DNA of 64,000 bases, taken from an uncultured Chloroflexia bacterium. Lineage in GTDB: Bacteria > Chloroflexota > Limnocylindria > Limnocylindrales > CSP1-4. The position numbers and the translations under genes were made by a program. Location of the stretch: positions 397,752 to 461,751 of the forward strand of contig CAWIQP010000004.1 in the NCBI GenBank assembly GCA_963838285.1. Direction: 5' to 3'. This document shows positions 13,418-59,578 of the stretch, piece by piece. The notes beneath the pieces are model-generated. The model was not told the DNA's origin. It did no database searches and saw only the letters and a list, made by a program, of their open reading frames with translations. The first letter of the stretch is position 1. Each line of letters opens with the position of its first letter.

Positions 13418-14054
13418 CTACGACCCCGAAGGGGCGGGCGAGGGCGACGCGGGAGCCTCGATCGCGGGAGAGGAGGACGGAGCGTTCGGAACGCCCTGGT
13501 ACTGCGCCGACTGAACCCAGCCGAAAGCGGACATCGGCCAGTAGCGCAGCCACGCCCGCCCGATCACCGTCGACTTCGGTATCGGCCCGAAGACGCGCGA
13601 GTCCTGCAGATTCCTGGCGGTGGTCACCCAGAACGAACAGGTCTCCGGCCGGCACGCGCCAGCTCGACTGCCCGGTCAGCGGCACCGTCGGTTGTCCCTC
13701 GTACACGTAGGGCTCGTCGAGCTTGACGCCATTCACGTATACGGAGTTGTCGTGGATCTCCACCAGGTCCCCGGCCACTCCGATCACACGCTTGATGAAC
13801 GGAATGTTCTGACCGTCCTCGGAGTATCCGGCGGGCGGCTGGAAGACGATGACGTCGCCCCGCTTGTAGTCGCTGAAGATCGGCGAGAGCTTGTCGACCA
13901 GCACGTACTGCCCGGGCTCGAGGGTGTGCTCCATCGACACCTGCAGGATCTGATACGGCTGAGCAACGAAGTGCTGAACCACGAAGAAGATTACGACGGT
14001 GAGAAGAATCGTCTCCACGATTTCGAGGAGGCAGCCGCGCCAGCGTTTGCTCAT
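13418..14054 (-). pseudogene. lepB: signal peptidase I (LepB) with an apparent +1 frameshift near 13628-13640
   Basis: The N-terminal frame has the Ser motif SMEHTL, Lys motif IKRVIGVAGD and LGDHRQ. A second frame (13418..13627) has the C-terminal NLQDSRVFGPIP...IGRAWLRYWP. The total length of 637 nt is not a multiple of 3. Confidence 0.8.
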
Positions 14055-14315
14055 CCGGAAAAGCACCCCTCTGAGGGTCGCGAACCGTGCCGCGAAAAGG
14101 GCCGGGCAAGAGAGTCGCGCCGTATTCCGGGCGCGACCGGCCTAGAAGGTAGCACCTCCGGAGTTATCGGGAGGCGCCACTGGTGTCAGGAGAGGACGGG
14201 CGTTTCGGTGGATGGACGGCCGTGCCGGCGACACGGACCGACGGCGGGGTCCGGCGACATGCGGAAGCGGCGCAGGCGGCGCGCGAAGACGGCGCAACCC
14301 CGCCACAATCCGCTC

Positions 14316-14879
14316 ATGGGTGAGCAGAAGGATCGAATGCTTCGCGGCGAGCTGTTCTGTTACAACGACCCGGAGCTGGAGGCCGGAAAGCACCGCGGAT
14401 CCCGATTGGTCGAGCGGCTCAACAGCACGGGTCGGGACGAGGCCGAGGCCAGGCGGGCAATTCTGGAGGAGCTACTCGGCCACATCGGGGCCGGGGTGGT
14501 GATCGTGAGCCCGTTCTACTGCGAGTACGGCAGCCAGATCACCATCGAGGACGGCGTCTTCATCAACCTCAACGTCATGTTCCTCGACGTCGGCAGGATC
14601 GTGGTCAAGCGCGGCGCGATGATCGGGCCGGGAGTCCAGCTGCTGACGGCGACTCATCCGCTCGACCCCGAAGGCCGGGTCAGGCAAGCACTCGAGATGG
14701 GCAAGCCGATCACCATCGGCGAGGACGCCTGGCTCGGCGGCGGCGTGATCGTGCTGCCGGGCGTGACCGTCGGGGACCGGACCACCGTCGGTGCCGGAAG
14801 CGTGGTGACGAAGGACCTCCCGCCCGACGTCGTCGCGGTGGGAAACCCAGCTCGGGTGGTTCGCGGAATCCGAGACTGA
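14316..14879 (+). CDS. maa: maltose/galactoside O-acetyltransferase (hexapeptide-repeat, Maa/LacA family)
   Basis: The N-terminal EQKDRMLRGELF is the Maa N-terminal domain. Left-handed beta-helix hexapeptide repeats are present. Confidence 0.85.
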   Translation: MGEQKDRMLRGELFCYNDPELEAGKHRGSRLVERLNSTGRDEAEARRAILEELLGHIGAGVVIVSPFYCEYGSQITIEDGVFINLNVMFLDVGRIVVKRGAMIGPGVQLLTATHPLDPEGRVRQALEMGKPITIGEDAWLGGGVIVLPGVTVGDRTTVGAGSVVTKDLPPDVVAVGNPARVVRGIRD

Positions 14880-14880
14880 C

Positions 14881-15432
14881 GTGGACGTGTTCGCGCTGGT
14901 CGGTGTCCCGTTCGCCGTCTTCCTGGCGGCGTTCACATTCGCCGGCTACTCGATCGGCGGCAGCGCGGCGGGTCCAGAGCGCGATCGCCCGTCGCGAAGC
15001 ACGCCCCAGGCCCGAATCCGCCGCGCCGCGCTGCTTGTGATCGCGGCCGCGTTGGCCGTCCTGGGTTCGGCCGCGGCCGCCGCCGCCGGGGCATTCGCCA
15101 GGCTGACGGACCAGGGTTACCCCATCGAGCCCGCCGCGCTGCTCTTCGCGCTCGAAGCAGCCGTCGACCTGGCCCTTCTCCTCGTCGTCGCGCTTCCGGG
15201 CTGGTCGACCCGGCGCGCCTGGGCAATCCGGGCGATCGGCCTGTACTGGCTGTGCGCGGCCGCGCCGATCCTCATCCTCGCCGACGCCGGCTCGGGTTCG
15301 CCTCCGCCCGCAGGTACGGCAAACGACGCGCTCCTGCTGGGCATGGCTCCCATCCTATGGGAGGTGGCCGCCGTTCTCGCTCCCGCGGTTCTGCTCTGGG
15401 TCGCCAGCATCGGGACCGCCGAGACGCCGTAG
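14881..15432 (+). CDS. hypothetical membrane protein
   Basis: GTG start immediately after the maa stop. Four predicted hydrophobic helices. Confidence 0.4.
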   Translation: MDVFALVGVPFAVFLAAFTFAGYSIGGSAAGPERDRPSRSTPQARIRRAALLVIAAALAVLGSAAAAAAGAFARLTDQGYPIEPAALLFALEAAVDLALLLVVALPGWSTRRAWAIRAIGLYWLCAAAPILILADAGSGSPPPAGTANDALLLGMAPILWEVAAVLAPAVLLWVASIGTAETP

Positions 15433-15458
15433 CGACCGGTTCCGGCAGCCGCGACCCG

Positions 15459-15489
15459 CTTGACGTGTGACCGTTGGGTCACCTATTGT
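15459..15489 (+). promoter_or_regulatory. putative promoter (-35 TTGACG, -10 TATTGT) overlapping a 14-bp palindrome TGACCgttgGGTCA, a candidate ArsR operator
   Basis: The palindrome sits between the -35 and -10 elements. The GTG start is about 7 nt after the -10, so the transcript is probably leaderless. Confidence 0.45.
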
Positions 15490-15495
15490 CGGCCC

Positions 15496-16278: not shown

Positions 16279-16483
16279 TCGACCGCCCACCCAACCCACA
16301 CGCGAGCCGGGGGCGACCGCCGCCTCCGGCTCGTTCGTACTCACCGGCGCCTCTGCACGGCTCGCCGCGCCGACGGTGCCAGGCCGCCCCACGGTCCTCG
16401 TGTCGTGGGGCCAAGCCGGGGGCGCCCCCAGGCTGTATCGTCTGGGAGTGAGCACCGTCGTCGAGTTCCGCGGTTCGTTTCGC

Positions 16484-16669
16484 ATGATGGAGAGCGACGG
16501 AGATCGCCTGCGGCGCGCCGGCAAGGGCACGTGGTACGACCGCTGCGGCGCCATCGCGACGACCGAGCACAACAACCCCAAGTGCGAGACCTGCGCCCGC
16601 GGCGGCAATTGCGGTCTCGACTGCACGCTGAGCCGGCTGGTGTGCCCCGGGTGCGGCGCCACAGCCTGA
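16484..16669 (+). CDS. small Cys-rich protein (61 aa, 7 Cys, two CxxC knuckles), zinc-ribbon/rubredoxin-like
   Basis: CETC...CPGCG motifs. The stop is 12 nt before the aldH TTG start, suggesting translational coupling. Low confidence that it is expressed. Confidence 0.35.
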   Translation: MMESDGDRLRRAGKGTWYDRCGAIATTEHNNPKCETCARGGNCGLDCTLSRLVCPGCGATA

Positions 16670-16680
16670 GACGCCGAAAC

Positions 16681-18127
16681 TTGGCCGCTTCCCCCGAAAC
16701 CGACCCGCACCGGATATTCCTGGCCGGCCGATGGGTCGAATCTCCGGACCGCCTCGTCGTGACGAACCCGGCCAGACCGGACGAACCGGCCGGCGCCACG
16801 TACTACGCCACGGCCGAGCAGTACGAGGAGGCCGTGGCCGCGGCGGTGGCGGCGTTCGAGACGACCCGCAAGATGCCCGCCTTCGAGAGGAGCGCGGCGC
16901 TCCGAGCCATCGCTGCCGCCATCGCATCGCGGCGCGAGGAGATCGGTCGACTGATCGCGACCGAGTCGGGCAAGCCCGTTCGCGACGCCTTGGGCGAGGT
17001 CGACCGGGCCGCGCTCACCTTCAGGATCGGGGCCGAGGAGGCCGAACGCATCGGCGGCGAGGTGATCCCGCTCGACCTGAACCCCGCATCCCGAAACCGG
17101 ACCGGCATCACCCGCCGCTTTCCGATCGGCCCCATCGCGGCCGTCAGCCCGTTCAACTTCCCGCTGAACCTGGCCGCTCACAAGCTGGCGCCGGCGATCG
17201 CTTCGGGCAATCCGATCGTGCTGAAGCCGCCGTCCAAGGACCCGCTGACGATGCTGACCGTGGCGGAGTCCATCGCCGAAGCGGGCCTTCCGCCCGGAGC
17301 GGTGAGCATCCTGCCGATGACTCGCGAGCTCGGCGACCGGATGGTCTCGGACGATCGCTTCAAGCTGCTGACGTTCACCGGCAGCCCCGCCGTGGGCTGG
17401 AAGATGAAGGAGCGGGCCGGGAAGAAGAAGGTCGTGCTCGAACTGGGCGGCAACGCCGGCGTCGTCGTCGATCGTTCCGCCGACCTCGACTGGGCGGCCC
17501 GGCGCATCCTCGTCGGCGCCTTCAGCTACGCCGGCCAGGTCTGCATCAGCGTCCAGCGCCTGTTCGTCCACGAGGCCGTGTGGGACGAGTTCATGGGCCG
17601 CTTCGTCGACGGCGCGCGGAGGCTTCGTCTCGGCGACCCGCTCGACCCGCGGACCGACGTCGGCCCCATGGTCGACCCCGCCGCCGCCGAACGCACCCGG
17701 GAGTGGGTGGACGAGGCCCGCTCGATGGGCGGGCAAGGTGCTCCTGGGGGGAACGGCCGACGGCTCGTACTTCCCGCCGACGGTACTAACCCACGTGCCC
17801 GCCTCGGCGCGGATCTGCCGCGAGGAAGCCTTCGCCCCGGTCGTGGTCGCGTTCCCCGTCCGCGAGTTCTCCGACGCGCTGCGCGGCGTGAACGACAGCC
17901 GCTTCGGCCTCCAGGCGGGCGTCTTCACCAACGATCTCGCGCATGCCTGGTCCGCGTTCGAGGACCTGGAAGTCGGCGGAGTCATCGTCAACGACGTGCC
18001 CACGTACCGCATCGACCACATGCCCTACGGCGGTTCCAAGGACTCCGGCATGGGTCGCGAAGGCGTCCGGTACGCCATCGAGGACATGACGGAGCTTCGG
18101 ATCATGGTGATGGCCGCTCCGGCGTAG
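16681..18127 (+). pseudogene. NAD(P)-dependent aldehyde dehydrogenase with an apparent +1 frameshift at ~17731-17737
   Basis: Frame A carries the ALDH motifs FTGSPAVG, ELGGNAG and catalytic Cys AGQVCIS up to ...EARSMGG. Frame B (17738..) continues VLLGGTADGSYFPPTVL...EEAFAPV. The length of 1447 nt is not a multiple of 3. Confidence 0.8.
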
Positions 18128-18196
18128 CGGGGGCCGGCTCCGGCCGGGTCGGCCACTCGGCCGCGTGGCCGCGCCGGAGCCGCTACAGTCCCGCAC

Positions 18197-19228
18197 ATGG
18201 AAATCGGCCTCGCCGTCGGCGGCAGTCTCCAGGATGTGGCGACCCTGGCCGGTCGGGCCGAGGCGGCCGGGCTGGAGTCGATCTGGCTGGCCGAGCTCGA
18301 CCGTTCGGCCTTCGTCCAGGCCGCCGCCGCAATCTCCGCCACGTCGCACGTCGGCGTCGGGACGGCGGTTGCGCTGGCCTTCCCCCGCTCCCCCACCGTC
18401 ACGGCCATGACCGCGTGGGACCTGGACGAGATGTCCGGCGACCGTTTCATGCTGGGCCTCGGGCCGCAGGTCAAGCGGGTCATGGAGGCCCGCTTCTCGG
18501 TCCGAGTGGAGAAGCCGGCGGCGCAGATGCGCGAGTACGTGAAGGCGGTGCGGACCGTCTGGGCCGCCAACCGGGGCGAGCCCGTCGTGCACGAGGGAGA
18601 GGCATATCGGATCACGATGCCCACGTTCCACGGCCCGCTCAGGCCCGAGCGGCGCGACACTCCGATCCTGATCGCGGGCGTCGGCCCGGTGATGTCGCGC
18701 GTCTGCGGCGAAGTCGCCGACGGGCTGCTGGGCCACCCGCTGGCGTCGCCGCGCTACCTGCGCGAGGCGGTGGCGCCGGAGATCGCCGCCGGCCTGGAGC
18801 GCGCGGGCCGTCCGCGCGGCGCGTGCCCGATCACCGCGATGGCTCTCGTCTCGATCGGCGACGACGCCGACGCGGCCAGGCGCGCCGCGCGGCTCCAGAT
18901 CGCGTTCTACGCGACGACTCCCTCGTACAAGCCGATCCTGGAGATGCACGGCAGAGGAGCGCTGCCCAGGGATCTGCGCCGCGCATTCGTGAACCGTGAC
19001 AGGGATCGCATGGCCGATCTCATCGACGACGAGCTCCTGGACTCGATAGCAATCGCGGGCCGTCCCGACGAGGCCCCCGATCGGCTCCGCTCGTGGGAGG
19101 ACGTCGCCGATCGCGTCGTCCTGGGCATACCCTGGTACGGAATGGACGCCGGCCGTCAGGGGGACGCCATCTCGGCGGCGCTGGACCTGGGTTCTCGAGT
19201 GATCGCGGCGAACGCCGCCGCCACCTGA
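18197..19228 (+). CDS. luciferase-like (LLM-class) F420-dependent oxidoreductase
   Basis: TIM-barrel LLM family signature: ESIWLAELDR, LGLGPQ, AGVGP. Confidence 0.8.
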   Translation: MEIGLAVGGSLQDVATLAGRAEAAGLESIWLAELDRSAFVQAAAAISATSHVGVGTAVALAFPRSPTVTAMTAWDLDEMSGDRFMLGLGPQVKRVMEARFSVRVEKPAAQMREYVKAVRTVWAANRGEPVVHEGEAYRITMPTFHGPLRPERRDTPILIAGVGPVMSRVCGEVADGLLGHPLASPRYLREAVAPEIAAGLERAGRPRGACPITAMALVSIGDDADAARRAARLQIAFYATTPSYKPILEMHGRGALPRDLRRAFVNRDRDRMADLIDDELLDSIAIAGRPDEAPDRLRSWEDVADRVVLGIPWYGMDAGRQGDAISAALDLGSRVIAANAAAT

Positions 19229-19252
19229 GGGGCCGTCGACGACGTAAGCCGA

Positions 19253-21580: not shown

Positions 21581-21678
21581 AGGCTGTCGGCCGCCTCTCG
21601 CGCGTCGCGCTTCAACTTGCCCTCTGAACCCCGACTGAATGGTATCGAAGACGCGTGCCGAGCACCCGGCGGTCGCGG

Positions 21679-24036: not shown

Positions 24037-24176
24037 GAGTCCTCACTCCTGACACACCCGTGATCAGTCTTCGACTCAGACTCGGCGCCACTCCGTGGCC
24101 GCCGCACGAGAACTGCGAATCGAGCCCAACCAGCGCCGAACATGGCGTCCCCCACCGCCCCGAAAGGAGCCGATTC

Positions 24177-30438: not shown

Positions 30439-31473
30439 ATGGGGGGCCTGATGACGGGCCGGCTCGCCGGGATCGACCGGCGACGGGCGCTCGCGATCGC
30501 GGCGCAGGTGGCGCTGGCCGCCTGGTTTGCCTATTGGAGCTGGCAGATCCTGCGCTTCTACTTCGAGAGCTTCCCGTACCACCTCGACATGTTCGGGTTC
30601 GACTCCCGCATATACCTGCACGGAGCCCAGACCTGGCTCGCCGGCGGCGATCCCTGGACCGCCTACGCGTCCCAGCATGCCTGGCCGCAGGGAGCGGGCG
30701 ACGTTCCGTACTACTTCACCGGTCCCCCACCGACCGTCCTGGCATTCGCCCCGTTCGCCTGGCTGCCCGACGCGCCGTTCACGGCCGTCTGGCAGGTTCT
30801 CACTGTCGGATCGGCGCTCTACATCCTTCGAAGGCTGCGCCTGCCCGTCTGGTGGCTGCTGTTCCCACCGCTGGCTCAGGCGGTCTTCATCGGCAACCCG
30901 CACGTGGTCTGCCTGGCTCTGATCCTGAGCGGCTGGAGCGTCCTCCGGGCGCTCGCCCCGGCGGTGAAGGCCTACGCGGTCATACCGATGGTCGGCGAGC
31001 GACAGTGGCGGGCCCTGGGAATCCTGGCGGTTGCGGGCACGCTATCCCTCGTCGCCTTCTGGCCGCTGTGGTCCCAGTACGCGGCCGACTATCAGCACAT
31101 TCAGACGTGGATCTCCAACGCGACGTGGGGTGGATTCTCCGCTTCCCGCGACCCGCGACTCTTCGTGGTTGCGGGCGTGGCGCTGGCGGCGCTCGCGGTC
31201 ATCGACTTCCGCGCGGCCGGCTGGCTCGTGGTTCCGGCGATGTGGCCCGCCGCCGAGTACTTCTACGCTTCGTTCGCGCTGCCACTGCGTTCGCCCTGGC
31301 TCATGGCGGCGCTCGCGGTCCCGGCGACGCAGGCCACCGCTCTGGTGCCGTGGACCATCGTCGCGTACGCCCTGGCGCGGGTCGGACTCGCCGTATTCCG
31401 GTGGTGGGCTCCGGCTCCCGAGGAGAGTGCGCCACCGCCTGGGCTCGATCCCGAGGACGCCGGCGCGCTGTAG
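30439..31473 (+). CDS. polytopic membrane protein (DUF2029/GT87-like, possible mannosyltransferase)
   Basis: About 9 TM segments. Aromatic-rich loops. Confidence 0.55.
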   Translation: MGGLMTGRLAGIDRRRALAIAAQVALAAWFAYWSWQILRFYFESFPYHLDMFGFDSRIYLHGAQTWLAGGDPWTAYASQHAWPQGAGDVPYYFTGPPPTVLAFAPFAWLPDAPFTAVWQVLTVGSALYILRRLRLPVWWLLFPPLAQAVFIGNPHVVCLALILSGWSVLRALAPAVKAYAVIPMVGERQWRALGILAVAGTLSLVAFWPLWSQYAADYQHIQTWISNATWGGFSASRDPRLFVVAGVALAALAVIDFRAAGWLVVPAMWPAAEYFYASFALPLRSPWLMAALAVPATQATALVPWTIVAYALARVGLAVFRWWAPAPEESAPPPGLDPEDAGAL

Positions 31474-31548
31474 TGCTGGCGTCGCGATCGACTCAATCGA
31501 CGTGCGGGCGCGTAGATCCGACGCCGGGCAGCCGCTGGAAGGGCAGGC

Positions 31549-31596
31549 TTGGCGTCCCCGGCGGGATTCGAACCCACGACCCGCCGCTTAGAAGGC
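31549..31596 (-). repeat. 48-bp direct repeat identical to the 3' part (anticodon stem to CCA) of tRNA-Arg(TCT). An att-like site, attR of an integrated islet
   Basis: 31549-31596 is identical to 33519-33566. Identity stops exactly in the anticodon stem. Confidence 0.85.
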
Positions 31597-31793
31597 CAAA
31601 GCGGCTATGCGCAATAGCACCACGCTCAGAGGCCCGAGCGTAACGTGTCCAGTTAGCGTGTCTTGCGCATGGCTCTCCCGCCCAAGTCATGGCTGGAGGA
31701 TTGCTTAGTTGTTGGCCTTGGTCGCGCCAACACAATCCCTCCGGCGTGCAACACCTAGGGGCACTCGGACGTTAGTCTGGTCAGGGAGGCATC

Positions 31794-32294
31794 TTGGAAG
31801 CTGCGACCCGGCTGAGTCCGGCCCATGCTCGTGAACTCCAGACGGCATTCAGGGTCCACATGCCCTGGCTCCGGCGGCGGATCGCGTTGATCGTTGGCGA
31901 TCCCGACGAGGCGTCGGACATCGCCCAGGAAGCCTTCGCCCGCGCCGTGGAGAACTGGCCGCTCGGCTCACGCGACGATGTGGCCCGCTGGCTTGCGACG
32001 GTCGGCATCAGGCTGGCAATCGATGCGCTGCGCCGACGCAGGCGTTGGGGTTTCACGCCGCTCCACGAAACCGACGCGACCTGGGCTCTGGATGTCGACC
32101 CCGACCTCTGGCGGGCGATTGCGACGCTGAAGCCGACAGCTCGTGCCGCGTTGCTGCTCACCGTGCTCGATGGATACACACAGGACGAGGTCGCGGCCGC
32201 GCTCAGCGTGAGGCGCGGCACCGTCGCAAGCTGGCTCTTGCGAGCACGCGACGAGCTGCGACCCCTCATCGGGAGTTCCGAAGATGGACGATAA
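31794..32294 (+). CDS. ECF-type RNA polymerase sigma factor (sigma-70 regions 2 and 4)
   Basis: Region 2 DIAQEAF. Region 4 ARAALLLTVLDGYTQDEVAAALSVRRGTVASWLLRARDEL. TTG start behind a GGGAGG RBS. Confidence 0.8.
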   Translation: MEAATRLSPAHARELQTAFRVHMPWLRRRIALIVGDPDEASDIAQEAFARAVENWPLGSRDDVARWLATVGIRLAIDALRRRRRWGFTPLHETDATWALDVDPDLWRAIATLKPTARAALLLTVLDGYTQDEVAAALSVRRGTVASWLLRARDELRPLIGSSEDGR

Positions 32295-33423
32295 GTTCGA
32301 CGAACGATTGCGCGAGCGGCTCCGGTCGCTCGACGCGGCAGTGCCTCCGGAAACTCGCGTGGTTGGCGTGGCTCCCATCACCAGGCGCCGATCCGCCGTC
32401 CGACTGGTCGGCGTGCCATCGCTCGGGTTGGCGGCAGCCCTCCTGATCGTTCTCGCGGCCGTCATGGTTGCGGGCGGCGCGCCCAAGGCCGCCGGGCCGG
32501 CACGCAGCGAGCCTGCACCGACTTCCGCGGCGCCGACCTCTGCCACGCAGACCTCGGCCGCGCCGACCTCGGCCTCGCGAGTGCTGGGCCAGCCTGACGT
32601 CGTCATGGGGTCGGCCGGCTTTCCGGTTTCGATCGACGGCCAGGCGGTCTACCGCTTCGAATACGCGACGACCTGGGAGAGCCTGACCGGAAGCTTTTTG
32701 GTCGCCGCAGAAGCGCCATCCGGAGCGCCAAGCTGCCCCGGGGCATACCCGTCGCCCACGCCAATGCCCAATGCGGAGTCCGACCTCTTTGCTGATTGCC
32801 CGGAGGTCATCCTCGGCTACACGTCCTCGTCCCAGAGCAGTGGGTTCTCGGGCACGGCGGTCGCGCCAAAAGGGCTGCCGCTCGCAGCCATATCGACCTG
32901 GGGTGGCCATGTTGTGGTGTTCCGGGCCCACACCCACGACCCGGAAGCAGCTCAGTGCGAACGTGCCGATCTTGCTCGATGCGAGGCTGCCCTTGTCGTC
33001 GAGTCGGTCGTCTGGCCGTATCTCCCGTCGAGCATCGACGGCGAGCATGTCTATCTGGGCAGCGACGCGTGGGGCGGCGAAATCGAGAAACTCAGCAAGA
33101 GTTTCTTGATTGGTGGTTTGGTTGGAATGAGCGAGGGCAACGTGGTGAGCGAATGCAAGTCCTCAGCCGCCGCCCGAGAGCTCGCGGTCAACTGCGCCAG
33201 CTTCGACACCGAGTTGGGCGGAGCCTGGATCGCACCGGAGAGCGCAGCCGAGCTGACAAACGGGTGGGTTGTGGTTGTGCGCGCTCATTTCGACCAGACG
33301 CTTGCGGCCCAATGCCCGGCGGACATCAGATACGAGTGTCCGCAGGCCGTCATCGTCGACTCGGTCGTGTGGTCTTCGAACCCGTACGCCTCAAACGGCG
33401 CGACTCCGACACCCTACCGTTAG
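32284..33423 (+). CDS. putative anti-sigma factor: short cytoplasmic N-terminus, one TM, Ala/Pro/Thr-rich linker and a Cys-containing extracytoplasmic domain
   Basis: Its start overlaps the sigma-factor stop, so the two are translationally coupled. The TM is LGLAAALLIVLAAVMVAG. Four CxxxxxxxC-like pairs in the ecto-domain. Confidence 0.6.
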   Translation: MDDKFDERLRERLRSLDAAVPPETRVVGVAPITRRRSAVRLVGVPSLGLAAALLIVLAAVMVAGGAPKAAGPARSEPAPTSAAPTSATQTSAAPTSASRVLGQPDVVMGSAGFPVSIDGQAVYRFEYATTWESLTGSFLVAAEAPSGAPSCPGAYPSPTPMPNAESDLFADCPEVILGYTSSSQSSGFSGTAVAPKGLPLAAISTWGGHVVVFRAHTHDPEAAQCERADLARCEAALVVESVVWPYLPSSIDGEHVYLGSDAWGGEIEKLSKSFLIGGLVGMSEGNVVSECKSSAAARELAVNCASFDTELGGAWIAPESAAELTNGWVVVVRAHFDQTLAAQCPADIRYECPQAVIVDSVVWSSNPYASNGATPTPYR

Positions 33424-33519
33424 GTATCGCCGGTGGTCACGCCTCCTCATGTCGAGACGACCGCGGTTGTGGGCTGTCGCACTCAAGCGGCATGTCGTCC
33501 CGCGCTCAAACAGGGAAGT

Positions 33520-33595
33520 TGGCGTCCCCGGCGGGATTCGAACCCACGACCCGCCGCTTAGAAGGCGGCCGCTCTATCCACTGAGCTACGGGGAC
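33520..33595 (-). tRNA. tRNA-Arg (anticodon TCT), CCA encoded
   Basis: Cloverleaf folds by hand: acceptor GTCCCCG/CGGGGAC, D-arm GCTC/GAGC, anticodon loop CTTCTAA, T-arm GTGGG-TTCGAAT-CCCGC. Confidence 0.9.
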
Positions 33596-33864
33596 ACCGG
33601 TTGGACGCCGCGGCTAGCGTACCCGAAGGCAGGGTGCCGGCCAAGTCGGTCGAGCCCGACTGCGATGGGAAACGGACGCGCCGCCTGGTCTGGTCAGACC
33701 GCCCGCGCGCGGCCCGCGCCACATCCACGGCGGACGACGACCGCGGGCCGAGACCACAGGCAATCGTTCTTTCGTCCCATCGTTGCGCCGCACGACCGGT
33801 GCTAGACTCCGGTCTTCTTCCGTCATCGACCGGTGGCCGGCTGCGCATTTCGGAGGTCGTCATC

Positions 33865-36655: not shown

Positions 36656-36732
<77 letters not shown>

Positions 36733-45577: not shown

Positions 45578-46711
45578 TCAGTCGGGCCGGTAGATCACTC
45601 GCCCGTCCGCGTCGACGGTCGGTCCGGGACGGCCTGCGCCCGCGGATGCCGGCGAGGCTCCCGCGCTCGCGACAACGCCAGAACCCGCGCCCGCCCCCGC
45701 CGACGCCAGGGCCCGGGCGGCCCGCCGCGCCTCCGCACCGGGCACCTGGTCGCGGGCGTGGTAGCTCGACCGAACCAGCGGGCCCGACTCGACGTGCTTG
45801 AAGCCCAGCGCCAGCGCCTCCTCGCGCATCTCGGCGAACTCGTCGGGGTGGTAGTAGCGCTCGACCGGCAGGTGCTCCGGCGACGGCCGCAGATACTGCC
45901 CCAGCGTCAGGATGTCGCAGTCGACCGCCCGCAGGTCGAGGAACGTCTGACGCAGCTCCGGCCGCGTCTCGCCGAGACCGACCATGATCGAGGACTTGGT
46001 GTGCACCGCCGCCGCTTCGTCCGACCCGGCGAATTCGCGCGCGTACGCCTTCGCCCGCAGGAGCACGCCGAGCGATCGGTCGTATCGGGCCCGTTTCCGA
46101 ACCGGCTTCTGCAGCCGCGCCACCGTCTCGACGTTGTGATTCAGGATGTCGGGGCCGGCCGCCATGACGGTGCGCAGCGGTCCTTCCTCGCCGTTGAAGT
46201 CGGGGATCAGCACCTCCACGCCCATGCCCGGGCAGGCGGCGCGAAGGCGGCGGATCGTCTCCGCGAAGATGCCGGCGCCGCCGTCGTCGAGGTCGTCGCG
46301 GGCCACGCTGGTGATGACCACGTGGTCGAGGCCCAGGCCGCGGATCGCCTCGGCGACCCGACGCGGCTCGTCCAGGTCGTGGACCAGGGGCTTGCCCGTC
46401 TTTACGGCGCAGAACCCGCAGGCTCGGGTGCAGGTGTCGCCGAGGATCATGACCGTCGCCGTGCGCTGGTCCCAGCACTCCCCGACGTTGGGGCAGCGCG
46501 CCTCCTCGCAGACGGTGTTGAGGGTCAGCCCGTGGAGAAGCCGCCGGACCTCCTGGTAGGTCTCGCCGGACGGGATGCGGGCCTTTATCCAGTCGGGATG
46601 GCGCCGCGGCGCGGTCGAACCGTCGGCGGCAGTCTCAAAGGTGCCGCCGCCCATCGCTATGGTCGGCGGCAGCACGCGCGGCGCCGTATCGGTTCTGGTC
46701 GAGTCGGACAT
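45578..46711 (-). CDS. lipA: lipoyl synthase
   Basis: Radical-SAM CxxxCxxC (CTRACGFC) plus the N-terminal auxiliary-cluster cysteines CEEARCPNVGEC. Confidence 0.9.
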   Translation of the reverse strand: MSDSTRTDTAPRVLPPTIAMGGGTFETAADGSTAPRRHPDWIKARIPSGETYQEVRRLLHGLTLNTVCEEARCPNVGECWDQRTATVMILGDTCTRACGFCAVKTGKPLVHDLDEPRRVAEAIRGLGLDHVVITSVARDDLDDGGAGIFAETIRRLRAACPGMGVEVLIPDFNGEEGPLRTVMAAGPDILNHNVETVARLQKPVRKRARYDRSLGVLLRAKAYAREFAGSDEAAAVHTKSSIMVGLGETRPELRQTFLDLRAVDCDILTLGQYLRPSPEHLPVERYYHPDEFAEMREEALALGFKHVESGPLVRSSYHARDQVPGAEARRAARALASAGAGAGSGVVASAGASPASAGAGRPGPTVDADGRVIYRPD

Positions 46712-46743
46712 TGGGGGTGAGCCTGCCAGCGCTTGGATGGTGA

Positions 46744-48249
46744 CTAGTAGATCGGCGTGTCGGGCCCTACGGCCTCGAGCCAGCAGATCACGTCGCGGAC
46801 GAATCGGCCGACCTGGGCGCCGTCGGTGGCACGGTGATCGTACCCGGCCACGAGATTCATCATCGACCGCACCGCTATCACGTCGCCCTCCGGAGTCTCC
46901 CGGACGACGGGCCGCTTGACGACCGCCTCGGTGGTCAGGATGCAGACCTCGGGCGTGTTGATGATCGGGACGGTGAGGATCGACCCGAACCAGCCGGTGT
47001 TGTCGACCGTGAAAGTGCCGCCCCCGAGATCCTCGACCCGGAGCCTGTTCGATCGGGCTCGAGAGGCCAGATCCTGTATCGCCCGGTTGATGCCGCTGAT
47101 CGACAACCGATCGGCGTCGCGTATCACCGGCACGATGAGGCCTCCGCCCTGCGGCCCCTCGACGGCGATGGCGATGCCGATGTTGATGCGGCGTTTGCGC
47201 AGCAGACCGGCGTCGGTGTAGTGGGCGTTGAGATCCGGGCTGCCGTGCAGCGCCTCGACGACGGCTTTGACCACGAACGGCAGGAAGCTCAGCCCGACGC
47301 CCTCGCGAGCCTTGTACGAATCGGCCTGGGCTCGGCGAAGGTTCACCACGGCCGTCATGTCGACTTCGAACGTGCTGTGAGCCACCGGCACCGCCGCGGC
47401 GCGGGTCATCTGGGCGGCAATGCCGCGACGCATCTGGCTGTGCGGGACGAGAACCTCGTCCTGGTCCGGTTCCCAGGCAACGCCGTGGGCGGACGGCGAT
47501 GGTGAAGGCGCGCCCGGAGCCAGGCCCGGCGCATGGCTCGGGAGGCCGGGCACGGGTGCCCGAAGGGCGTCCGCGAAGACGGCGGCCTGGTCGGCCGCAG
47601 TGGCGATTCCCGGCCACGACGAGGGCTCGGCGGCAGTGGCGGCTCCCCTCCCCGTGGCCGAAGCGGGAGTGGCGGCTCCGCTCCCCGTGGCGCCGCGCTC
47701 GACAAAGGTAATCACGTCGTCGCGAGTGATCCGGCCGGCATGGCCCGTACCCACGATCTGCACCGGCGAGAGGCTGTACCGGCGCATCAGCATCCGCACG
47801 GCCGGCGTCATGCGCGCGTTCGGGTCGCCGACCGCCAAAGCTGGCAGAGCCTGGGGTTGGGCGGCGCGAGTGGCGGTAGCGACAGGAGTGGCAGGAGTTG
47901 CCGGCGCGGCCGGCGCGGCCGGGCTCGGAGCCACGACGGCGGCCGCGGGAGCCGCCGCCTTCGCGGCGGCAGTGCCCGCTCCACGGGGAGTGGCCCCGGC
48001 CGAGGCCGGCATCGCCACTTCCTCTATCTCCGCAATCTCGACCATATGCGGAACCGTCTGCCCCTCGGCGACCAGGATCTTTCGCAGCACGCCCTCGAAC
48101 GGCGACGGAACCTCCGCGTTGACCTTGTCGGTGATGACCTCGAGAAGCGGCTCGTCCTTGGCCACGGCGTCGCCCGGTTGCTTGAGCCACTTCCCGATCG
48201 TCCCCTCGGCCACGCTCTCGCCCAGCTGGGGCATGGTCACCTTGGCCAC
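46744..48249 (-). CDS. 2-oxo-acid dehydrogenase E2 component (dihydrolipoamide acyltransferase)
   Basis: Lipoyl domain ITDKVNAEVPSP, Ala/Pro linkers, E3-binding domain, catalytic DHRATDG. GTG start behind a GGGAGGAG RBS. An alternative ATG start is at 48234. Confidence 0.85.
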   Translation of the reverse strand: MAKVTMPQLGESVAEGTIGKWLKQPGDAVAKDEPLLEVITDKVNAEVPSPFEGVLRKILVAEGQTVPHMVEIAEIEEVAMPASAGATPRGAGTAAAKAAAPAAAVVAPSPAAPAAPATPATPVATATRAAQPQALPALAVGDPNARMTPAVRMLMRRYSLSPVQIVGTGHAGRITRDDVITFVERGATGSGAATPASATGRGAATAAEPSSWPGIATAADQAAVFADALRAPVPGLPSHAPGLAPGAPSPSPSAHGVAWEPDQDEVLVPHSQMRRGIAAQMTRAAAVPVAHSTFEVDMTAVVNLRRAQADSYKAREGVGLSFLPFVVKAVVEALHGSPDLNAHYTDAGLLRKRRINIGIAIAVEGPQGGGLIVPVIRDADRLSISGINRAIQDLASRARSNRLRVEDLGGGTFTVDNTGWFGSILTVPIINTPEVCILTTEAVVKRPVVRETPEGDVIAVRSMMNLVAGYDHRATDGAQVGRFVRDVICWLEAVGPDTPIY

Positions 48250-51363: not shown

Positions 51364-51684
51364 TCAGTTGCCGCGGACGGAGCGGAAGCAGTCGCTGCAG
51401 TAGACGGGCTTGCCGTTGGTCGGACGGAACGGCACTTCGGTGGAGCGCCCGCATCGGCTGCATGTCGCCGGGAACATCTCGCGCGGGCCCCGGTCGTATC
51501 CGCCACCGAACCCGCCGGCGTGGCCCGTGCCGCCCTCGGGGCGGGACGCCTTCCGGGCGCTGCGACACGAGGCGCATCTCTTGGGTTCGGTGAAGCCGCG
51601 CTGGGCGTAGAAGTCCTGCTCGCTGGCGGTGAATACGAATTGCTGGTTGCAGTCGGCGCAGACGAGAATCTTGTCCGTGTACAC
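51364..51684 (-). CDS. conserved zinc-ribbon domain protein (two CxxC...CxxC fingers)
   Basis: CADCNQQFVFTASEQDFYAQRGF...CASC and CSRCG...CSDC. Confidence 0.7.
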   Translation of the reverse strand: MYTDKILVCADCNQQFVFTASEQDFYAQRGFTEPKRCASCRSARKASRPEGGTGHAGGFGGGYDRGPREMFPATCSRCGRSTEVPFRPTNGKPVYCSDCFRSVRGN

Positions 51685-52179
51685 GGGACCCCGAAGCTCC
51701 TCTCAGTAGCCGCTCCCTCCGTGTCCTCGCGGCTGCGCGTGAGAGGCCCGGTCGTCGTGCTACTTGGACGCGCCCGCGGCCAGCCCGCGGACTTTGCGGC
51801 GGGATTGTACGTCCGGCGACGCGGCGTGCATAGAGTTGTCGATGGCCGACGTTTGCGCCGACCGCGCCATTCGAGATCTCGATCTCTACTCGCGATCGAC
51901 CATCCTCGTGTGAGATGAGCCGGGGTCCGAAGGCGCGGGAAATACGCCGCTTGGCTCCCCGCGCGATGGACGCGCCACGAGGAGCGCACGCGTGACGCTC
52001 AGGCGCGCCCGCACGACTGGCTCAGGACCGGGCTCACATCCCCGCCACGGCCGAGCGCCCGCATCGACCACACATAACCGAACCGCTCCGCCCGGTCGCA
52101 AGCGCGATACCGGCATCGTTCGGGCGCCCCGTGCCCAAACAAAAGCCGCGCTCTGCCGAACGGCGCTGACGAATCCCGA

Positions 52180-53124: not shown

Positions 53125-53140
53125 TGCGTTCCTCCTCCGA

Positions 53141-56100
53141 CTAACCGGTGTTCTGAAGGCCGGCGGCCACGCCGTTGACGGTGAGCTGGACCAGGCGGCG
53201 GAAGCGCTCTCTGTCCGGATCGTCGGCCGGAAGCGAACGCAGTCTCGCCAGGAAGCGTACCTGGATGTGGGAGAGAGGATCTATGTAGGGGCGGCGCAGC
53301 CTGATCGAGCGGGCCGCCAGGGGCTCGGCCGCCAGCAGCTCGGCTCGACCGGTCACTCGCGCCAGGCAGCGGATCGATCGCTCGTACTCGTCGGTGATAC
53401 GAGCCCAGAGGCGGGCCCCGTCCCCGTCCCCGGCCAACGCCGCATACAGCCCGGCAATCTTCGGCTCCGATCGGCCGAGGATCAGCTCGGCGTTGTCGAA
53501 GGCGCTCGTCAGGAACGGCCAATCCCGGTACAGCTCGGCGACGCGGTCGAGCGAGCCCTCGCCGTGCGCCTTCTCGAAGCCCTCCAGGGCGGAACCCAGG
53601 CCGTACCAGGCGGGCAGCCCGATGCGCGCCTGAGACCACGAGAAGACCCAGGGAATCGCCCGCAGCGACTCGATCCAGGCCGTCCGGGAGGGACCGGCTT
53701 CCGCCCGCCCGTCACCCGGCGCGCCGCCGCGCCCCCCGGCGGCGGCTCCGGCACTCGCACCGGGCGCTCCGGACCGTTCGCCGGCGGCCCCGCGCCGGGC
53801 CGGTCTCGATCCGAGCGCCATAGTCGATAGCTCGGCCACCGGCGTTACGGCCCGGAAGAATCGTTCGAAGCCCGGCTCTTCGTAGACGAGGTCCCGGTAG
53901 GCTCGGCGGGCCAGGCCGGCCAGTTCGTCCATCGCCGCCCGGCCTCGCTCGTCCACCTCGTCGACGCACTCGTCGTGCTCCTGCGTGGACGCCACCACGA
54001 CGGCGGAGCCCACGAGCTCCAGGTGGTTCTCGGCGACGTCCAGGTTGGAGTAGTTTGCCGCGATCGTCTCGCCCTGCTCGGTCATCTTGAAGCGGCCGTC
54101 GATCGAGCGGGGCGCCTGGGCCAGAATTGCCCGGTTGGTCGGACCGCCGCCGCGCCCGATGGCTCCGCCGCGGCCGTGGAAGAGCGTCAGCTCCACGCCG
54201 TGGCGCCGCGCCACTTCGGCAAGGCGGGCCTGGGCCCGGTAGAGCATCCACACCGCCGCCAGGAACCCCGATTCCTTGTTCGAGTCCGAATACCCGAGCA
54301 TCACCTCCTGGCGGTCGCCCCGGGCTGCCAGGTGGCGCCGATACCGCGGGTCGGTCAGCAGCGCCTCGAGCAACTCGCCCGACCCGGTCAGGGCGTCGCT
54401 GGACTCGAACAAGGGCACGATGTCGAGCGCCGCGGAGCCGGGCGGGAGGCCGCCGGTGGCGGATGCCGGGATGGCCGGTCCGGCGGCGACCTCCGCGAGG
54501 TCGAGGACGTGCATGACGTCGCCGGCGGAGCGCGTGAAGCTGATCACGTAGCGGTGGCAGGCATCCTCGCCGAACCGGCGCTGGATCGCGGCCGCGGCCC
54601 GGAAAGTGGCGACGACCTCGGCGGCGCTCACTCCGGGTACCAGCTCGGTCGCGAGATCCGGGGCAGCCGAACCGCCCGGAACGCCGTCCCTCCCGGCCGT
54701 GCCGGCGTCCCCTGTTCCACGCAGGGCCGCGAGCGCCGCCTCGTGCACCTCCGAGTGCTGCCTGAGCTCGAGCGAGGCCAGGTGGAAGCCGAACGTCTCG
54801 ACCTGCCAGCGGAAGTCCTGCACCTCGCCGAAGGCAACGCGCGGAAGGCGATCGGCGACCAGGCAGCGCTGCATCTCCTCGAGCTCCGACACGAGCTGGG
54901 CCGGCGTCTCGTAGCGCCCCGCGATGGGACCGGCCTCCTCGGTGAGGTACGCGCGAGTCCGGCGGAGCCGCTCCCCGATCGCTCCGAGCCGCTGCCGGTA
55001 GGGCTCCTCCGGATAGCGACCGGCCATGTCGCGCATCGTTTCCGGCAGCTCCTCGCCGTCGCGGGCCAGCCGCGCTTCCATGGCCGGCTGGATCTCCTCC
55101 CGCGGCACGTAGGCCGCGATCGTGGAGAGCAGGCGCGCGGCTACGGCCTCGTAGCCGTGGAGGACGTGGTCGGCGTGGATGCGCGGCACCTGGCGGGTGA
55201 CTTCGGCCGTCACGGTGGGGTTGCCGTCCCGGTCGCCACCGATCCACGAGCCCCAGCGCAGGAACGCGGCCACGCGCGCGGGCCGCGTTCCAGTTTGGCC
55301 CGCGTCGCCGGCGAGAAGGCCGTCGGCCGCCGGTCGCGCCGGCCGTCGCGCCGGCCGGCGCGTCGGCCGCCCCGGTCGCCTCGACACCGACGCCGGCCAC
55401 GCCGGCCGCCGACCGCGCCGGCTTCGTCCATGGCTCTGTCGAAGGCCCGGTACACGCGGGGGACGACCCTGAACAGCGTCTCGTCGAAGAACGTGAGGGC
55501 GGTCCGGACTTCGTCGATCGGACTGGGCGCCAGGCGGCGAACCGCGGACGACCGCCAGAGCAGGCTGATCTCCTCCCGCAAGCGGCGGCGGATCTCGGCT
55601 TCGTCCGTCGCTCCCAGGCGAGGATCGTCGAGCTGCTCCAGGAGCCGGTAGCAGCGTCGCAGCGCGGTCAGCATCGTGCGCCGCCGCGCCTCCGTCGGGT
55701 GCGCCGTCAGGACGGGCGTGATCCGCATCCGGCCGAGCAGCGCCGCCGCGCGATCGCCCGACCAGCCGCGCTCGAGCAGCCACGCCAGGGCTTCGGCCGG
55801 CGTCCCCTGACCCGCGGTGCCGGCCGCCGGCCGGTCGAGCCTGAAGCGGCGCACGGCGTCACGCTCCTCGGCGAGATTGACGAGCTGGAAGTACAGGCTG
55901 AACGCCCCCGCCAGCGCCTCGGCCTCGGCGACGTCGAGCGAGTCGAGCTCGGCGGCGAGAGCGCTCTCGGCTGCTTCGTCGCCGGTCTCGCGGAATGCGA
56001 TCGAACGCAGCCGGCATCGCTCGACCAGGTCCAGCAGCGGCGGGCCGCCCTGCTCGGCGATCACCTGGCCGAGGAGCGCGCCCAGCAGCTTGACCTCGCG

Positions 56101-56211
56101 CGGGAGCGGATCGCGGGCGCGCGCCGTGCCGGCGGTCGCAGACCCCGAGCGCGTTGCCACACTCCGGCCGACGCGGCGCCGGGCCTTGCGATCGGGGCCA
56201 TCTGCGGTCAT
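53141..56211 (-). pseudogene. ppc: phosphoenolpyruvate carboxylase with an apparent frameshift at ~55300-55370
   Basis: The N-terminal frame (…VLTAHPTEARRRT…RVYRAFD) and the C-terminal frame (FLRWGSWIGGDRDGNP…LQNTG) differ by one position across a GC repeat (gtcgcgccggcc x2). The 3071-nt span is not a multiple of 3. Confidence 0.8.
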
Positions 56212-56514
56212 GCGCTGCTCCACTTCGGGCGAGCCGTCGTCCAATCCCTCGCCGAGCCGGCCTTAGGGCCGCGCGCCGAGGGACGGGCTACTAGGGCGAG
56301 AATACAGCGCCACCGGAACCGGCAGGCGGACGTGGCCGGAGCGGACAGCCCCGCGGTCCGCGGGCGGGCAACCACTCCTACCCGAGGCGGGCGGGCCGGC
56401 GTCTCCGGTGCGCTCGAGCCGCGGCCTCCGCGCCGGCGGGCCGTCCTACGCCAGCGGCCACCCCACCGCACGCCGCCGCACGCTTGTCGCGCCGCCGCGC
56501 TACCATTCGGCGCC

Positions 56515-57015: not shown

Positions 57016-57195
57016 GTTCGCGCCGACTCATCCGCACCGACGCGGCGGGCGTCTCTCCACAGCAATCCGCACCTCCAGCCCCTTCGTATCGGCGTCGCCA
57101 CGACCCATCGAGGTAGGTTCGATCGGGCCGTTGGTCACGCCCGAGCCGTACCAAGTCCGATACCCCCGCGGCGCCCAGCCCCCTAACCTCTCTCC

Positions 57196-57729
57196 ATGGC
57201 GAGCGTCCCCTCCCACATGACACCCCTGCGGCTGGTTCAACGTGCCTCGATCGACCTCGTGCGGGCCGTGCCGTTGCTCACCGAGCAGGCGACGGCCTGG
57301 CTGGGCACGCCCGTGCCGGCGCCTCGTCGCGGCTGTCGTCGCTACCTGACGGACCTCAGGCTGCCGATCCGGGATCGCTCGCCGAGCCTGGTCTTCAACA
57401 AGGCCGCCTACGTGGACCTCGGCGAAGTGAGGGACACGCCCGACGGTTTCGAGCTCGAGATCGGCTGGCAGTCGTCTTCGCTTGCGCCTCTCTTCCCGGT
57501 GTTCGCCGGCCACCTCACGTTGACTTCGACGCAACTCCGCCTCGAGGGCTACTACGCACCACCCGGCGGAGAGTTCGGAGCGGTCCTCGACAAGGCCTTT
57601 CTCGGCATCGCCGCCCGGGGTACGGCGCGCTGGTTCCTGGAGCGCACGCTGGAGGTCGTCGCGCCGGCTTCGGCGGAAACCGACCTGGCCCGGCTGACAC
57701 GGCCATCGGCCGAGGAGGCCTCGGCTTAG
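57196..57729 (+). CDS. hypothetical protein
   Basis: 177-aa ORF with no recognisable motifs. Confidence 0.35.
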   Translation: MASVPSHMTPLRLVQRASIDLVRAVPLLTEQATAWLGTPVPAPRRGCRRYLTDLRLPIRDRSPSLVFNKAAYVDLGEVRDTPDGFELEIGWQSSSLAPLFPVFAGHLTLTSTQLRLEGYYAPPGGEFGAVLDKAFLGIAARGTARWFLERTLEVVAPASAETDLARLTRPSAEEASA

Positions 57730-57818
57730 AGCCCGGCCGGCCGCCGAACAAGGCCTCCTTCGCGTGAGCGGGTGCACACCCACAGGCGTCGTCCGAGACG
57801 GCTAAATCCGACAGATTC

Positions 57819-57848
57819 TTGCGACTTTCGAATGAGTTCCCCTATAGA
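57819..57848 (+). promoter_or_regulatory. sigma-70-like promoter (TTGCGA-N18-TATAGA) in a locally AT-richer tract
   Basis: Near-consensus hexamers about 80 nt upstream of a strong-RBS small ORF. Confidence 0.4.
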
Positions 57849-57929
57849 AGCGCAATCTCCATCGGAGTAAGGTGAGCCGGCTACCAGAATTCGCTCGCAT
57901 GAACTGCTGCCCAGTGGAAGGAGGTTCCG

Positions 57930-58166
57930 GTGCCTGAGCCATCCGCCGTAGAGGGAGTAGTGCGTGCGCTCGTCGAGGCCATGGAAGCGCGCGAGTCGGC
58001 CGAGCCGGATCTCCCCGAGTGGGAGGCGAACGCCCGGCTCCGCGCCGCGGAGGCGCACCTGCTGCAGCTGTACCGCGGATCCAGCCGGCCCCCGGCTGAG
58101 CTCGTGGCGATCGACATCGAAGTCGGGCAGTCCCAGGTCGGGCCGACCGCCGTCGAAGTCGCCTGA
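57930..58166 (+). CDS. hypothetical small protein (78 aa)
   Basis: GGAAGGAGG RBS 5 nt before GTG. Confidence 0.5.
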   Translation: MPEPSAVEGVVRALVEAMEARESAEPDLPEWEANARLRAAEAHLLQLYRGSSRPPAELVAIDIEVGQSQVGPTAVEVA

Positions 58167-58263
58167 CCAAGGTCGCCTTTCCTCGTCCGCGGAAGCCGCG
58201 CGCCCAAACCTGTAGTTGACAGGTCGGCCGACCGATACCTCGCACGGTTGGGCACACCTTGCC

Positions 58264-59578
58264 ATGGAGCCTGCCGTGCAATCACGGGCGACGGAGAAGC
58301 CGGACGCCAGCGCCCGCAAGGATCGCCGCCTGCGGGCGGTGTACCGACGCGAACTCCAGAACAGCGTCTTCTACTCGGCACTCATCGTGAGCGTCGGGAT
58401 CGCGGCTGCGATGGTCGCGAGCGCACTGCTCGCACCCGCGGCGGCGCTGGCCTATGCCGTCGTGACTCTGCCACTCGTCATCGCGGCCCTGGCGGTCGCC
58501 CATGTCGTGCGGAGCCGCGGCCGCAGGTACGTCATTCCGCTCGGCATGCTGATCGGACTGCTCCCCGGGGTGTCGACGGCCGCATCGGTCCTGCTGGTTC
58601 AGAGGCCGGAATTCGCCCTCGGCACGCTCGGGCTCATTCCCATCGCCTTCGCCGTGTTCGTTCCGTTCGAGCGCAGGCCGCACTTGACCTGGCTTGTCCT
58701 GGCCGACTGCCTCTTCCTCGTGGTCGTCGCCGGCATGGTGTACATCGGAGCGGGCTCGACCGAGGTCGTTGCCATGCTCGCCGGCGGAGGAATGGCCAGC
58801 GCGCTCAGCGTGGCAGCCAACGAGATCCAGCTCCGCCGGCGCCGCCAGATGAACGGCCAGCTTCTGGCGGTGCGCGGGCTGTACAGCCGAATGAAGGAGC
58901 ACGAGCTCGATCTCCGACGACAGGACGAGTTCCTGTTCATGCAGCAGGAGACGCTCGTCGTCCAGCAGGCCGAGCTTCTTCGCCTCAACGAGGAGCTCGA
59001 AATCGATCGCCCGCCTCGACGCGCTGACCGGTCTCGGCAACCGACTTCGCCTCAACGAGGACCTGGCCCAGATGGCCGGCCGAATCGAGCGCAACGGTGG
59101 CACGGCCGGGGTGCTGCTGCTGGACCTCGACCGGTTCAAGCGGCTCAACGACAGCGCCGGACACCTGGCCGGAGATGCCGCTCTTCGCGGAGTGGCGGAC
59201 GCGCTTCGCAAGACCAGCCGGGTCGGCGACGGAGTCTATCGCTACGGCGGCGAGGAGTTCCTGGTGCTGCTCCACGACTGCGACCAGGGGGATCTGCACT
59301 CGGCCGGGCAGCGCTACATTTCCGCGATCCAGGCCTCGGGGATGCCGCATCCGGACAACCAACCGTACGGCGTGGTCACGGCCAGCGCCGGCGCCACGGA
59401 ACTCTCGCAGGCCAACTGCGCCGACGTCGACTCCGCCCTCCACGACGCGGACGCAGCCCTGTACGTGGCCAAGGCCCGGGGCCGGAACCGCCTGGAGATC
59501 CACGCCCGGCCCATGCCGGCCGACGTGGTGCCGCTCGACCAGCAGCGCGCCGCCAGCCAGCAGCGCGCCGCGAGCTAA
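58264..59578 (+). pseudogene. membrane-anchored diguanylate cyclase (GGDEF) with an apparent +1 frameshift at ~58990-59030
   Basis: The N-terminal frame has 5-6 TM helices and a coiled coil up to ...LRLNEELE. Frame +1 continues ARLDALTGLGNR...LLLDLDRFKRLND...YRYGGEEF. The length is not a multiple of 3. Confidence 0.75.

Follow-up and report, generated by a model that had tools for sequence, protein, structure and literature searches.

Residual consensus indels as the probable cause of four split conserved genes in a contig from an uncultured Candidatus Limnocylindrales bacterium

Residual small indels are described in bacterial assemblies and metagenome-assembled genomes (MAGs) that are built from nanopore reads only, where single-base errors split conserved genes (IDEEL test; Sereika et al. 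2022, PMC9262707; PMC12313526). According to the R10.4 benchmark, a near-finished consensus needs about 40-fold coverage, and otherwise indels fragment the gene calls (PMC9262707). The long-read catalogue of Microflora Danica (MFD) was assembled from nanopore reads using Flye and polished once with Medaka, with no short-read polishing step described, and was inspected by its authors for nanopore-associated errors (PMC12313526). A second kind of reproducible error arises during nanopore basecalling as a result of DNA methylation (PMC11610573, PMC11610603). Frameshift pseudogenes of bacteria present a similar picture, since they also contain a conserved open reading frame (ORF) that is interrupted by a ±1 indel and whose remaining part stays readable in another frame. 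Here we report the analysis of a 64,000-nt stretch (hereafter, the window) of the contig CAWIQP010000004.1 from an uncultured Candidatus Limnocylindrales bacterium, in which four conserved genes, lepB (signal peptidase I), aldH (aldehyde dehydrogenase), ppc (phosphoenolpyruvate (PEP) carboxylase), and a GGDEF diguanylate cyclase gene, are split between reading frames. Judging from sequence comparisons, the four splits are very probably residual small-indel consensus errors of a metagenome-assembled contig and not pseudogenes. The lesions are missing from conspecific assemblies, being either private to the window or at odds with the haplotypes around them, and frame breaks are in excess among nanopore-only relatives. 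The proposed reading follows from the comparison of assemblies at the four sites, an error hotspot in lepB, the haplotype discordance of the GGDEF lesion, the lack of decay, and a frame break rate that depends on the sequencing technology.

The window has a G+C content of about 70% throughout. A codon-usage model trained on the window was applied in a six-frame Viterbi segmentation, and each coding segment was checked against the corresponding stop-to-stop ORF. Only lepB, aldH, ppc, and the GGDEF gene were flagged as frame-broken among approximately 55 genes of the window: in each of them the coding signal stops far from a stop codon and picks up again in another frame, and the codon bias is maintained on either side of the break. 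In-frame stop codons were found in none of the window genes by the same segmentation and ORF comparison. The gene identities are supported by Pfam matches above the curated cut-off, with the sole exception of the 65-aa C-terminal fragment of lepB, which scored 21.3 bits when scanned alone, just below its cut-off of 22.9 bits. The intact conspecific genes receive the same Pfam assignments as the window fragments, and the coordinates of the paired fragments adjoin on a single profile for Peptidase_S26, Aldedh, and PEPcase. Identity to orthologs is 80-89% for the N-terminal part of lepB, both fragments of aldH, both parts of ppc, and the C-terminal part of the GGDEF gene; it is 65-70% for the C-terminal tail of lepB and about 68% at best for the N-terminal part of the GGDEF gene, which are less conserved regions of those proteins.

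An initial annotation of this DNA had proposed that these four genes continue in another frame at these places, and the ORFs, the DNA alignments, the Pfam matches, and the codon-usage scan all agree with it; a clean single-frame translation across the sites, which it had named as the outcome that would overturn its claim, does not exist, as all four genes change frame. Two of its more specific claims hold in part. The length difference of exactly ±1 nt is correct for lepB, aldH, and the GGDEF gene, which have one extra base each, and incorrect for ppc, which carries both a +1 and a -2 event. Of the four breaks, all of which it had placed within a homopolymer or a short GC repeat, only those of aldH (GG to GGG) and the GGDEF gene (AA to AAA) extend a short homopolymer, the lepB site being neither a homopolymer nor the suggested 'ccagg'. 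The remaining Viterbi switches in the window were rejected as frameshifts: those at 4653/4654 and 34399-34472 fall within single intact ORFs and reflect insertions of low complexity or variable sequence, the one at 46658-46747 is the junction between the separate lipA and E2 acyltransferase genes, and the signal at about 51.7 kb combines a conserved non-coding stretch with shadow ORFs.

Conspecific sequences were obtained through protein clusters, whereas scans of representative-genome and metagenome contigs returned other species only, at no more than 86% amino acid identity. A search with the repaired AldH protein led to a 90%-identity cluster containing P0121 (JGI sample 3300081534), P0123 (ENA ERZ25039480 contig_45599, 507 kb), and P0124 (ENA ERZ25039473 contig_25841, 61 kb), and further contigs were reached via a zinc-ribbon protein and the repaired GGDEF protein. 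Exact-protein look-ups of the window ORFs at 18197-19228 and 59072-59578, and of the AldH fragment P0122, returned no match. The resulting contigs represent three other assemblies, with L152 corresponding to contig_45599 (ERZ25039480) and L155 to contig_57489 (ERZ25039473). Their DNA identity to the window is 99.5% for L149 and L152, 99.4-99.7% for L151 and L153, 99.2% for L155, and 98.5-98.9% for the JGI contigs L150 and L154; the aligned span covers 6.6-28.1 kb and 41.4-61.7 kb of the window (6634-28129 and 41365-61713). The JGI contigs (Ga0643848_0004392 and Ga0643848_0012647), although fragmented, carry each of the four genes in an unbroken form. The comparison with sister strains, which had been proposed in the initial annotation, thereby shows that intact genes exist in conspecifics and that the lesions are private or haplotype-discordant. 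The L155 contig matches the window only from position 55150 onward, and its positions 1-3399, lying past a break inside ppc, are unrelated to the window, so that this assembly may have been rearranged or joined chimerically.

An error hotspot was observed in lepB (Peptidase_S26; 13418-14066, minus strand), which is split into an N-terminal part at approximately 13620-14066 and a C-terminal part at 13418-13615, matching positions 2-141 and 146-168 of the 168-position profile. The upstream frame, ending in 'VLGDHRQES', runs into nonsense, and QDSRVFGPIPKSTVIGRAWLRYWP carries on one frame over, as the 'QDSRVFGPIP' continuation. The hotspot occupies positions 13605-13614, where the minus strand of the window reads GAATC[T]GCAGG versus GAATCGCAGG, with one extra base at about 13608, namely a T inserted after GAATC. 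When base 13608 is removed, the protein of the window equals the intact 211-aa LepB of the JGI contig L150 except for one substitution. The extra base is also missing from the more distant orthologs L068 and L069 (gaatcTgcagg in the window versus gcgtc-gcagg in the relatives). On the plus strand, the window reads gtcctgCAgattcc (+1), L149 reads gtcctgCGaattcc (also +1, with bases that differ from those of the window), L151 reads gtcctg--aattcc (-1), and the JGI contig L150 reads gtcctgC-gattcc, which is in frame and encodes the normal 211-aa LepB. Three contigs with Flye-style names, the window being presumed to be of this kind, therefore carry three different wrong versions of the site next to a single in-frame version, and three inconsistent versions at one position point to an error hotspot rather than to three independent mutations in a gene of essential type.

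In aldH (Aldedh; 16642-18127, plus strand), the split at about 17731 is caused by a single extra G within 17729-17733 (ggcGGGc versus ggcGGc), which is private to the window in a four-way alignment. The sequence '...EWVDEARSMGG' is picked up in the next frame by 'VLLGGTADGSYFPPTVL', the extra G lying at 17731, and the two fragments match positions 1-330 and 336-459 of the 461-position Aldedh profile. The extra G is missing from all three conspecific contigs (L149, L150, and L151), as well as from eight more distant orthologs (ggcGGGcaagg in the window versus ggc-GGcaagg). Three conspecific proteins, P0121 and P0123 (494 aa) as well as P0124, run unbroken through 'EARSMGGRVLLGG' and hardly differ from the repaired AldH of the window. 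A further protein, P0122 (129 aa), is identical to the C-terminal AldH fragment of the window and is recorded on an NCBI/ENA contig of 1,137,616 bp, which places the window on a contig of megabase scale. Directly upstream, a small cysteine-rich ORF at 16442-16669 (plus strand; '...CGAIATTEHNNPKCETCARGGNCGLDCTLSRLVCPGCGATA') overlaps the aldH start, and is called as a 97-136-aa gene without a Pfam match in the conspecific contigs.

The membrane-anchored GGDEF diguanylate cyclase gene (58264-59578, plus strand) is split just upstream of the GGDEF domain, which Pfam finds complete within the downstream fragment. One extra A is present at about 59000 (58999-59001; gAAAtcgatcg versus gAAtcgatcg), where '...LRLNEELE' is picked up in the other frame by 'SIARLDALTGLGNR'. 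The repaired protein matches the intact 437-aa JGI protein P0125 at 100% over the full length in BLASTP, the printed sequences differing at two C-terminal residues, and 13 more distant orthologs are in frame at this site (gaaAtcgatcg in the window versus gaaa-cgatcg or gaat-cgatcg). A 4-nt tandem duplication (atcg atcg) was considered for this site and rejected, as the relatives have two residues there (S or T, then I) and the conspecific DNA differs by one A.

The extra A is shared by the window and L152 and is missing from the JGI contig L154 and from L155. The window and contig_45599 of ERZ25039480 are independent assemblies and carry it in identical sequence, which raises the possibility that assembly errors affect only lepB, aldH, and ppc, and that the natural population harbours the GGDEF frameshift as a genuine, segregating loss-of-function variant; diguanylate cyclases are dispensable, and a bacterium usually possesses several. 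We regard this as unlikely, since the indel disagrees with the single-nucleotide polymorphism (SNP) haplotypes on either side. The SNPs at 58884, 59167, 59362, and 59420 (116 bp upstream, and 167, 362, and 420 bp downstream, respectively) group the window with L155 against L152 with L154; the extra A therefore occurs on both of these flanking haplotypes and is missing from both. The grouping of the window with L152 is backed by just one of the 58 biallelic SNPs in the region. To be a real mutation, the indel would have to have arisen more than once, or recombination would have to have taken place within 116 bp on one side and 167 bp on the other. The site moreover lies in GAATCG, as does the lepB hotspot with its three conflicting assemblies, discrepancies of all kinds are in excess at GAATC sites, and the downstream GGDEF domain shows no decay. 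A recurrent context-dependent miscall explains the shared A more simply than an inherited mutation.

The ppc gene (PEPcase; 53141-56244, minus strand) is more complex, having its N-terminal part (270 residues), an 84-nt linker piece, and its C-terminal part (710 residues) in three different frames; the two large parts match positions 2-228 and 231 onward of the 919-position profile. Event 1 is one extra base at 55411 (55409-55413; gccgccGacc on the plus strand), and event 2 is a -2 change at about 55327 accompanied by substitutions (55322-55332; accggcg--gccgac versus acccgcgcggccgac on the minus strand). Both are private to the window in comparison with L152, L154, and L155, as is a 15-nt in-frame insertion in the low-complexity linker (55344-55358, minus strand), which may reflect genuine variation in repeat length or else be an artefact of assembly. 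The two events coincide with the Viterbi frame switches at 55404/55405 and 55325/55326, the third frame being used at 55326-55404. A single -1 deletion was rejected for this gene, as the codon statistics and the conspecific sequences give two events around the third-frame stretch. The linker in the third frame of the window, 'AAGVAGVGVEATGAADAPAGATAGATGG', has a composition that fits the linkers of relatives, and the linker of L154, 'AVAAGVAGVGVDATGAAHAAGATRAADGLLAGD', corresponds to that frame, which is therefore the true reading of the linker, as the codon-usage scan had predicted. Intact ppc genes encode 1014 aa in L152 and 1029 aa in L154, and L155 lacks both lesions at these sites. Among the relatives (L001-L029), the linker between 'FDRA(L/M)D' and 'DGxLAGDAGxTGTRP' is hypervariable and of low complexity, may be missing altogether or exceed 50 residues in length, and often consists of tandem peptide repeats that differ by species, such as PAGEALA x3 or GGAGS, making alignment across species impossible. 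Within the conspecific contigs, the same linker (window 55320-55420) varies by in-frame indels of 12 and 15 nt.

The ppc gene also bears on the idea that full-length proteins are produced by programmed ribosomal frameshifting or transcriptional slippage. The clean continuation in an adjacent frame in each gene, together with the short G and A runs touched by the aldH and GGDEF sites, would agree with such recoding, which we nevertheless consider barely credible: the runs are just three bases long, no slippery motif is common to the sites, and ppc would have to be recoded twice within its hypervariable linker, at points separated by 84 nt. Orthologs and conspecific assemblies are, in addition, plainly in frame at the same codons, in agreement with the low rank that recoding had in the initial annotation.

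Small indels that are private to one assembly are not confined to the four genes. In the 41.8 kb of comparable sequence, the window contains approximately seven private or discordant indels of at most two bases, or about one per 6 kb, including a one-base insertion at 56506 (plus strand; accaTtcgg), located at or just before the start of a DCC1-like gene, and a one-base deletion at 12151 (plus strand) in a C run of an intergenic tandem-repeat region. Each of the conspecific contigs with Flye-style names shows private lesions of its own. In contig_25841, private one-base indels split an LLM oxidoreductase (283 + 72 aa versus 343 aa) and the E2 acyltransferase (261 + 221 aa versus 501 aa), another one leaves an adenosine deaminase of 295 aa versus 344 aa, and an ABC permease, beside one more private insertion, is called 14 aa shorter (281 versus 295 aa). 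In contig_57489, indels occur at 57814 and within the N-terminus of the GGDEF gene, and contig_45599 has further private one-base insertions at window positions of approximately 44472 and 52170, in stretches that the codon-usage scan scored as non-coding. No gene is broken in the JGI contigs (22 kb).

These observations are difficult to reconcile with genuine recent pseudogenes in a strain that is losing genes or whose genome is decaying. The deposited sequence does contain the lesions, and four broken genes per 64 kb would suit such a process; yet conspecific assemblies at 98.5-99.7% identity carry unbroken versions of all four, and one-base indels private to the window also occur in intergenic DNA (12151 and 56506). 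There are no nonsense codons, larger deletions, or mobile elements, and codon bias and conservation are kept across the breaks. In contrast to frameshift pseudogenes, the lesions of the window are haplotype-discordant or not shared by conspecifics and come without further decay, and lepB is hit in three inconsistent ways at one position. Since the lesions behave neither as inherited nor as accompanied by secondary damage, and since break rates within the lineage go with the type of assembly, as described below, we consider decay to be very improbable, which agrees with its earlier ranking as a less likely cause.

The technology dependence was evaluated in other species of the lineage. A scan of representative genomes with the C-terminal part of ppc yielded 67 loci, nearly all of them from Chloroflexota MAGs labelled Candidatus Limnocylindrales, at no more than 86% amino acid identity; a metagenome scan with aldH gave relatives of up to 85% identity. 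For each of the 67 loci, the ORF translations were compared with all 67 loci, and a break was counted where one query gives two adjacent alignments in different frames of the same strand with the support of at least eight relatives. The nanopore-only MAGs from MFD (22 loci, 474 kb) contain 34 well-supported breaks, whereas the other MAGs (45 loci, 752 kb) contain a single one, located at an 'nn' scaffold gap, so that frame breaks per base are approximately 50 times more common in the nanopore-only relatives. Of the 34 breaks in the MFD MAGs, 29 are of the +1 insertion type in G+C-rich and mostly non-homopolymeric sequence, the same direction as in the lepB, aldH, and GGDEF lesions. Across the 67 loci and the conspecific contigs, the break rate follows assembly technology and not phylogeny. 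The window resembles the published residual nanopore indels in that single-base changes split conserved genes into adjacent-frame fragments, their rate is set by the assembly rather than the lineage, and accurate assemblies of the organism are intact. Together with the intact conspecific genes and the private or discordant indels, the 50-fold excess bears out the initial preference for systematic indel errors of long-read assembly.

We propose that the contig is very probably a long-read, nanopore-only assembly made without accurate short-read polishing, and that in the organism itself lepB, aldH, ppc, and the GGDEF gene would all be intact. The errors would for the most part be single extra bases in G+C-rich, mostly non-homopolymeric sequence, and those of lepB and the GGDEF gene, which both lie within GAATCG, would mark a reproducible miscall hotspot, possibly through methylation of the motif. 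Three or four other short indels fall at GAATC/GATTC, at approximately 21706 (L151), 52170 (L152), 57814 (L155), and possibly 58279. Among 52 GAATC sites in the aligned regions, three have indels and nine have SNP discrepancies, compared with approximately 3-5% for GATC, GGCC, GAGTC, and others; this excess is suggestive only, as the motif was picked after two of the sites had been seen. A motif common to all error sites was sought and not found, GAATC(G) being the only one that recurs. The errors in lepB and the GGDEF gene resemble those induced by methylation in nanopore basecalling in being reproducible, tied to context, and recurrent in independent assemblies, and differ from them in being indels, as the cited cases concern substitutions or mismatches (PMC11610573, PMC11610603). 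As a tentative suggestion with odds clearly below even, GAATC/GATTC may be methylated in this Limnocylindrales population, with the lepB hotspot and the recurrent GGDEF A as its footprints, a less likely variant being a real segregating GGDEF frameshift. If methylation is involved, the discordance between assemblies would report an epigenetic mark.

Several points weigh against consensus errors as the explanation. The evidence comes from comparing assemblies and is indirect. The sequencing technology of the window, of ERZ25039480 and ERZ25039473, and of the JGI sample 3300081534 is deduced from Flye-style names, fragmentation at repeats, and long contigs rather than documented, which also sets the window apart from the published nanopore cases. 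The identical extra A of the GGDEF gene in two independent assemblies is not expected of random error; either a real variant or a context-dependent miscall of a systematic kind is needed to explain it. Most sites lie outside long homopolymers, the classic failure mode of nanopore sequencing, and insertions outnumber deletions, in contrast to the classic description, which stresses homopolymer deletions and low-G+C genomes. Finally, real strain-specific mutations in the window's own population are formally still conceivable.

The value of these results is practical rather than biological, as no biological feature is involved. Annotators of this genome would wrongly record signal peptidase I, PEP carboxylase, an aldehyde dehydrogenase, and a diguanylate cyclase as lost. 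In nanopore-only MAGs of high-G+C Chloroflexota, small indels can amount to about one per 6-15 kb, many of them non-homopolymer insertions and some recurring at a specific context, and any search of such catalogues for pseudogenes, lost genes, or recoding needs a control based on conspecific assemblies or accurate reads.

Several other features of the window were noted. Upstream of the zinc-ribbon gene (51364-51684), the DNA of the stretch at 51690-51900 (minus strand) is conserved in many relatives from the Limnocylindrales and gives translated matches of up to 77-100% identity in all three frames, which fits a non-coding role such as a leader or a regulatory RNA. An Rfam search of the window detected two tRNAs only, without a credible match for the conserved non-coding region at 51.7-51.9 kb. 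Between the genes for the glutamate synthase small subunit and a methyltransferase, tandem repeats are found at 12097-12184, 12369-12550, and 12545-12652, comprising 21-22-nt units x 4, 60-nt units x 3 at 93% match, and short CCCGCCG-type units; this region contains 6- and 49-nt indels between conspecific contigs, and a JGI contig terminates there. The two tRNA genes, tRNA-Arg(TCT) and tRNA-Glu(CTC), are located at 33520-33595 and 36656-36732 (minus strand), and the region flanked by them, which includes a DNA methyltransferase gene at 33841-35415 (31399-33840 being listed as well), has a weak coding signal and a slightly lower G+C content and could be an integrated element.

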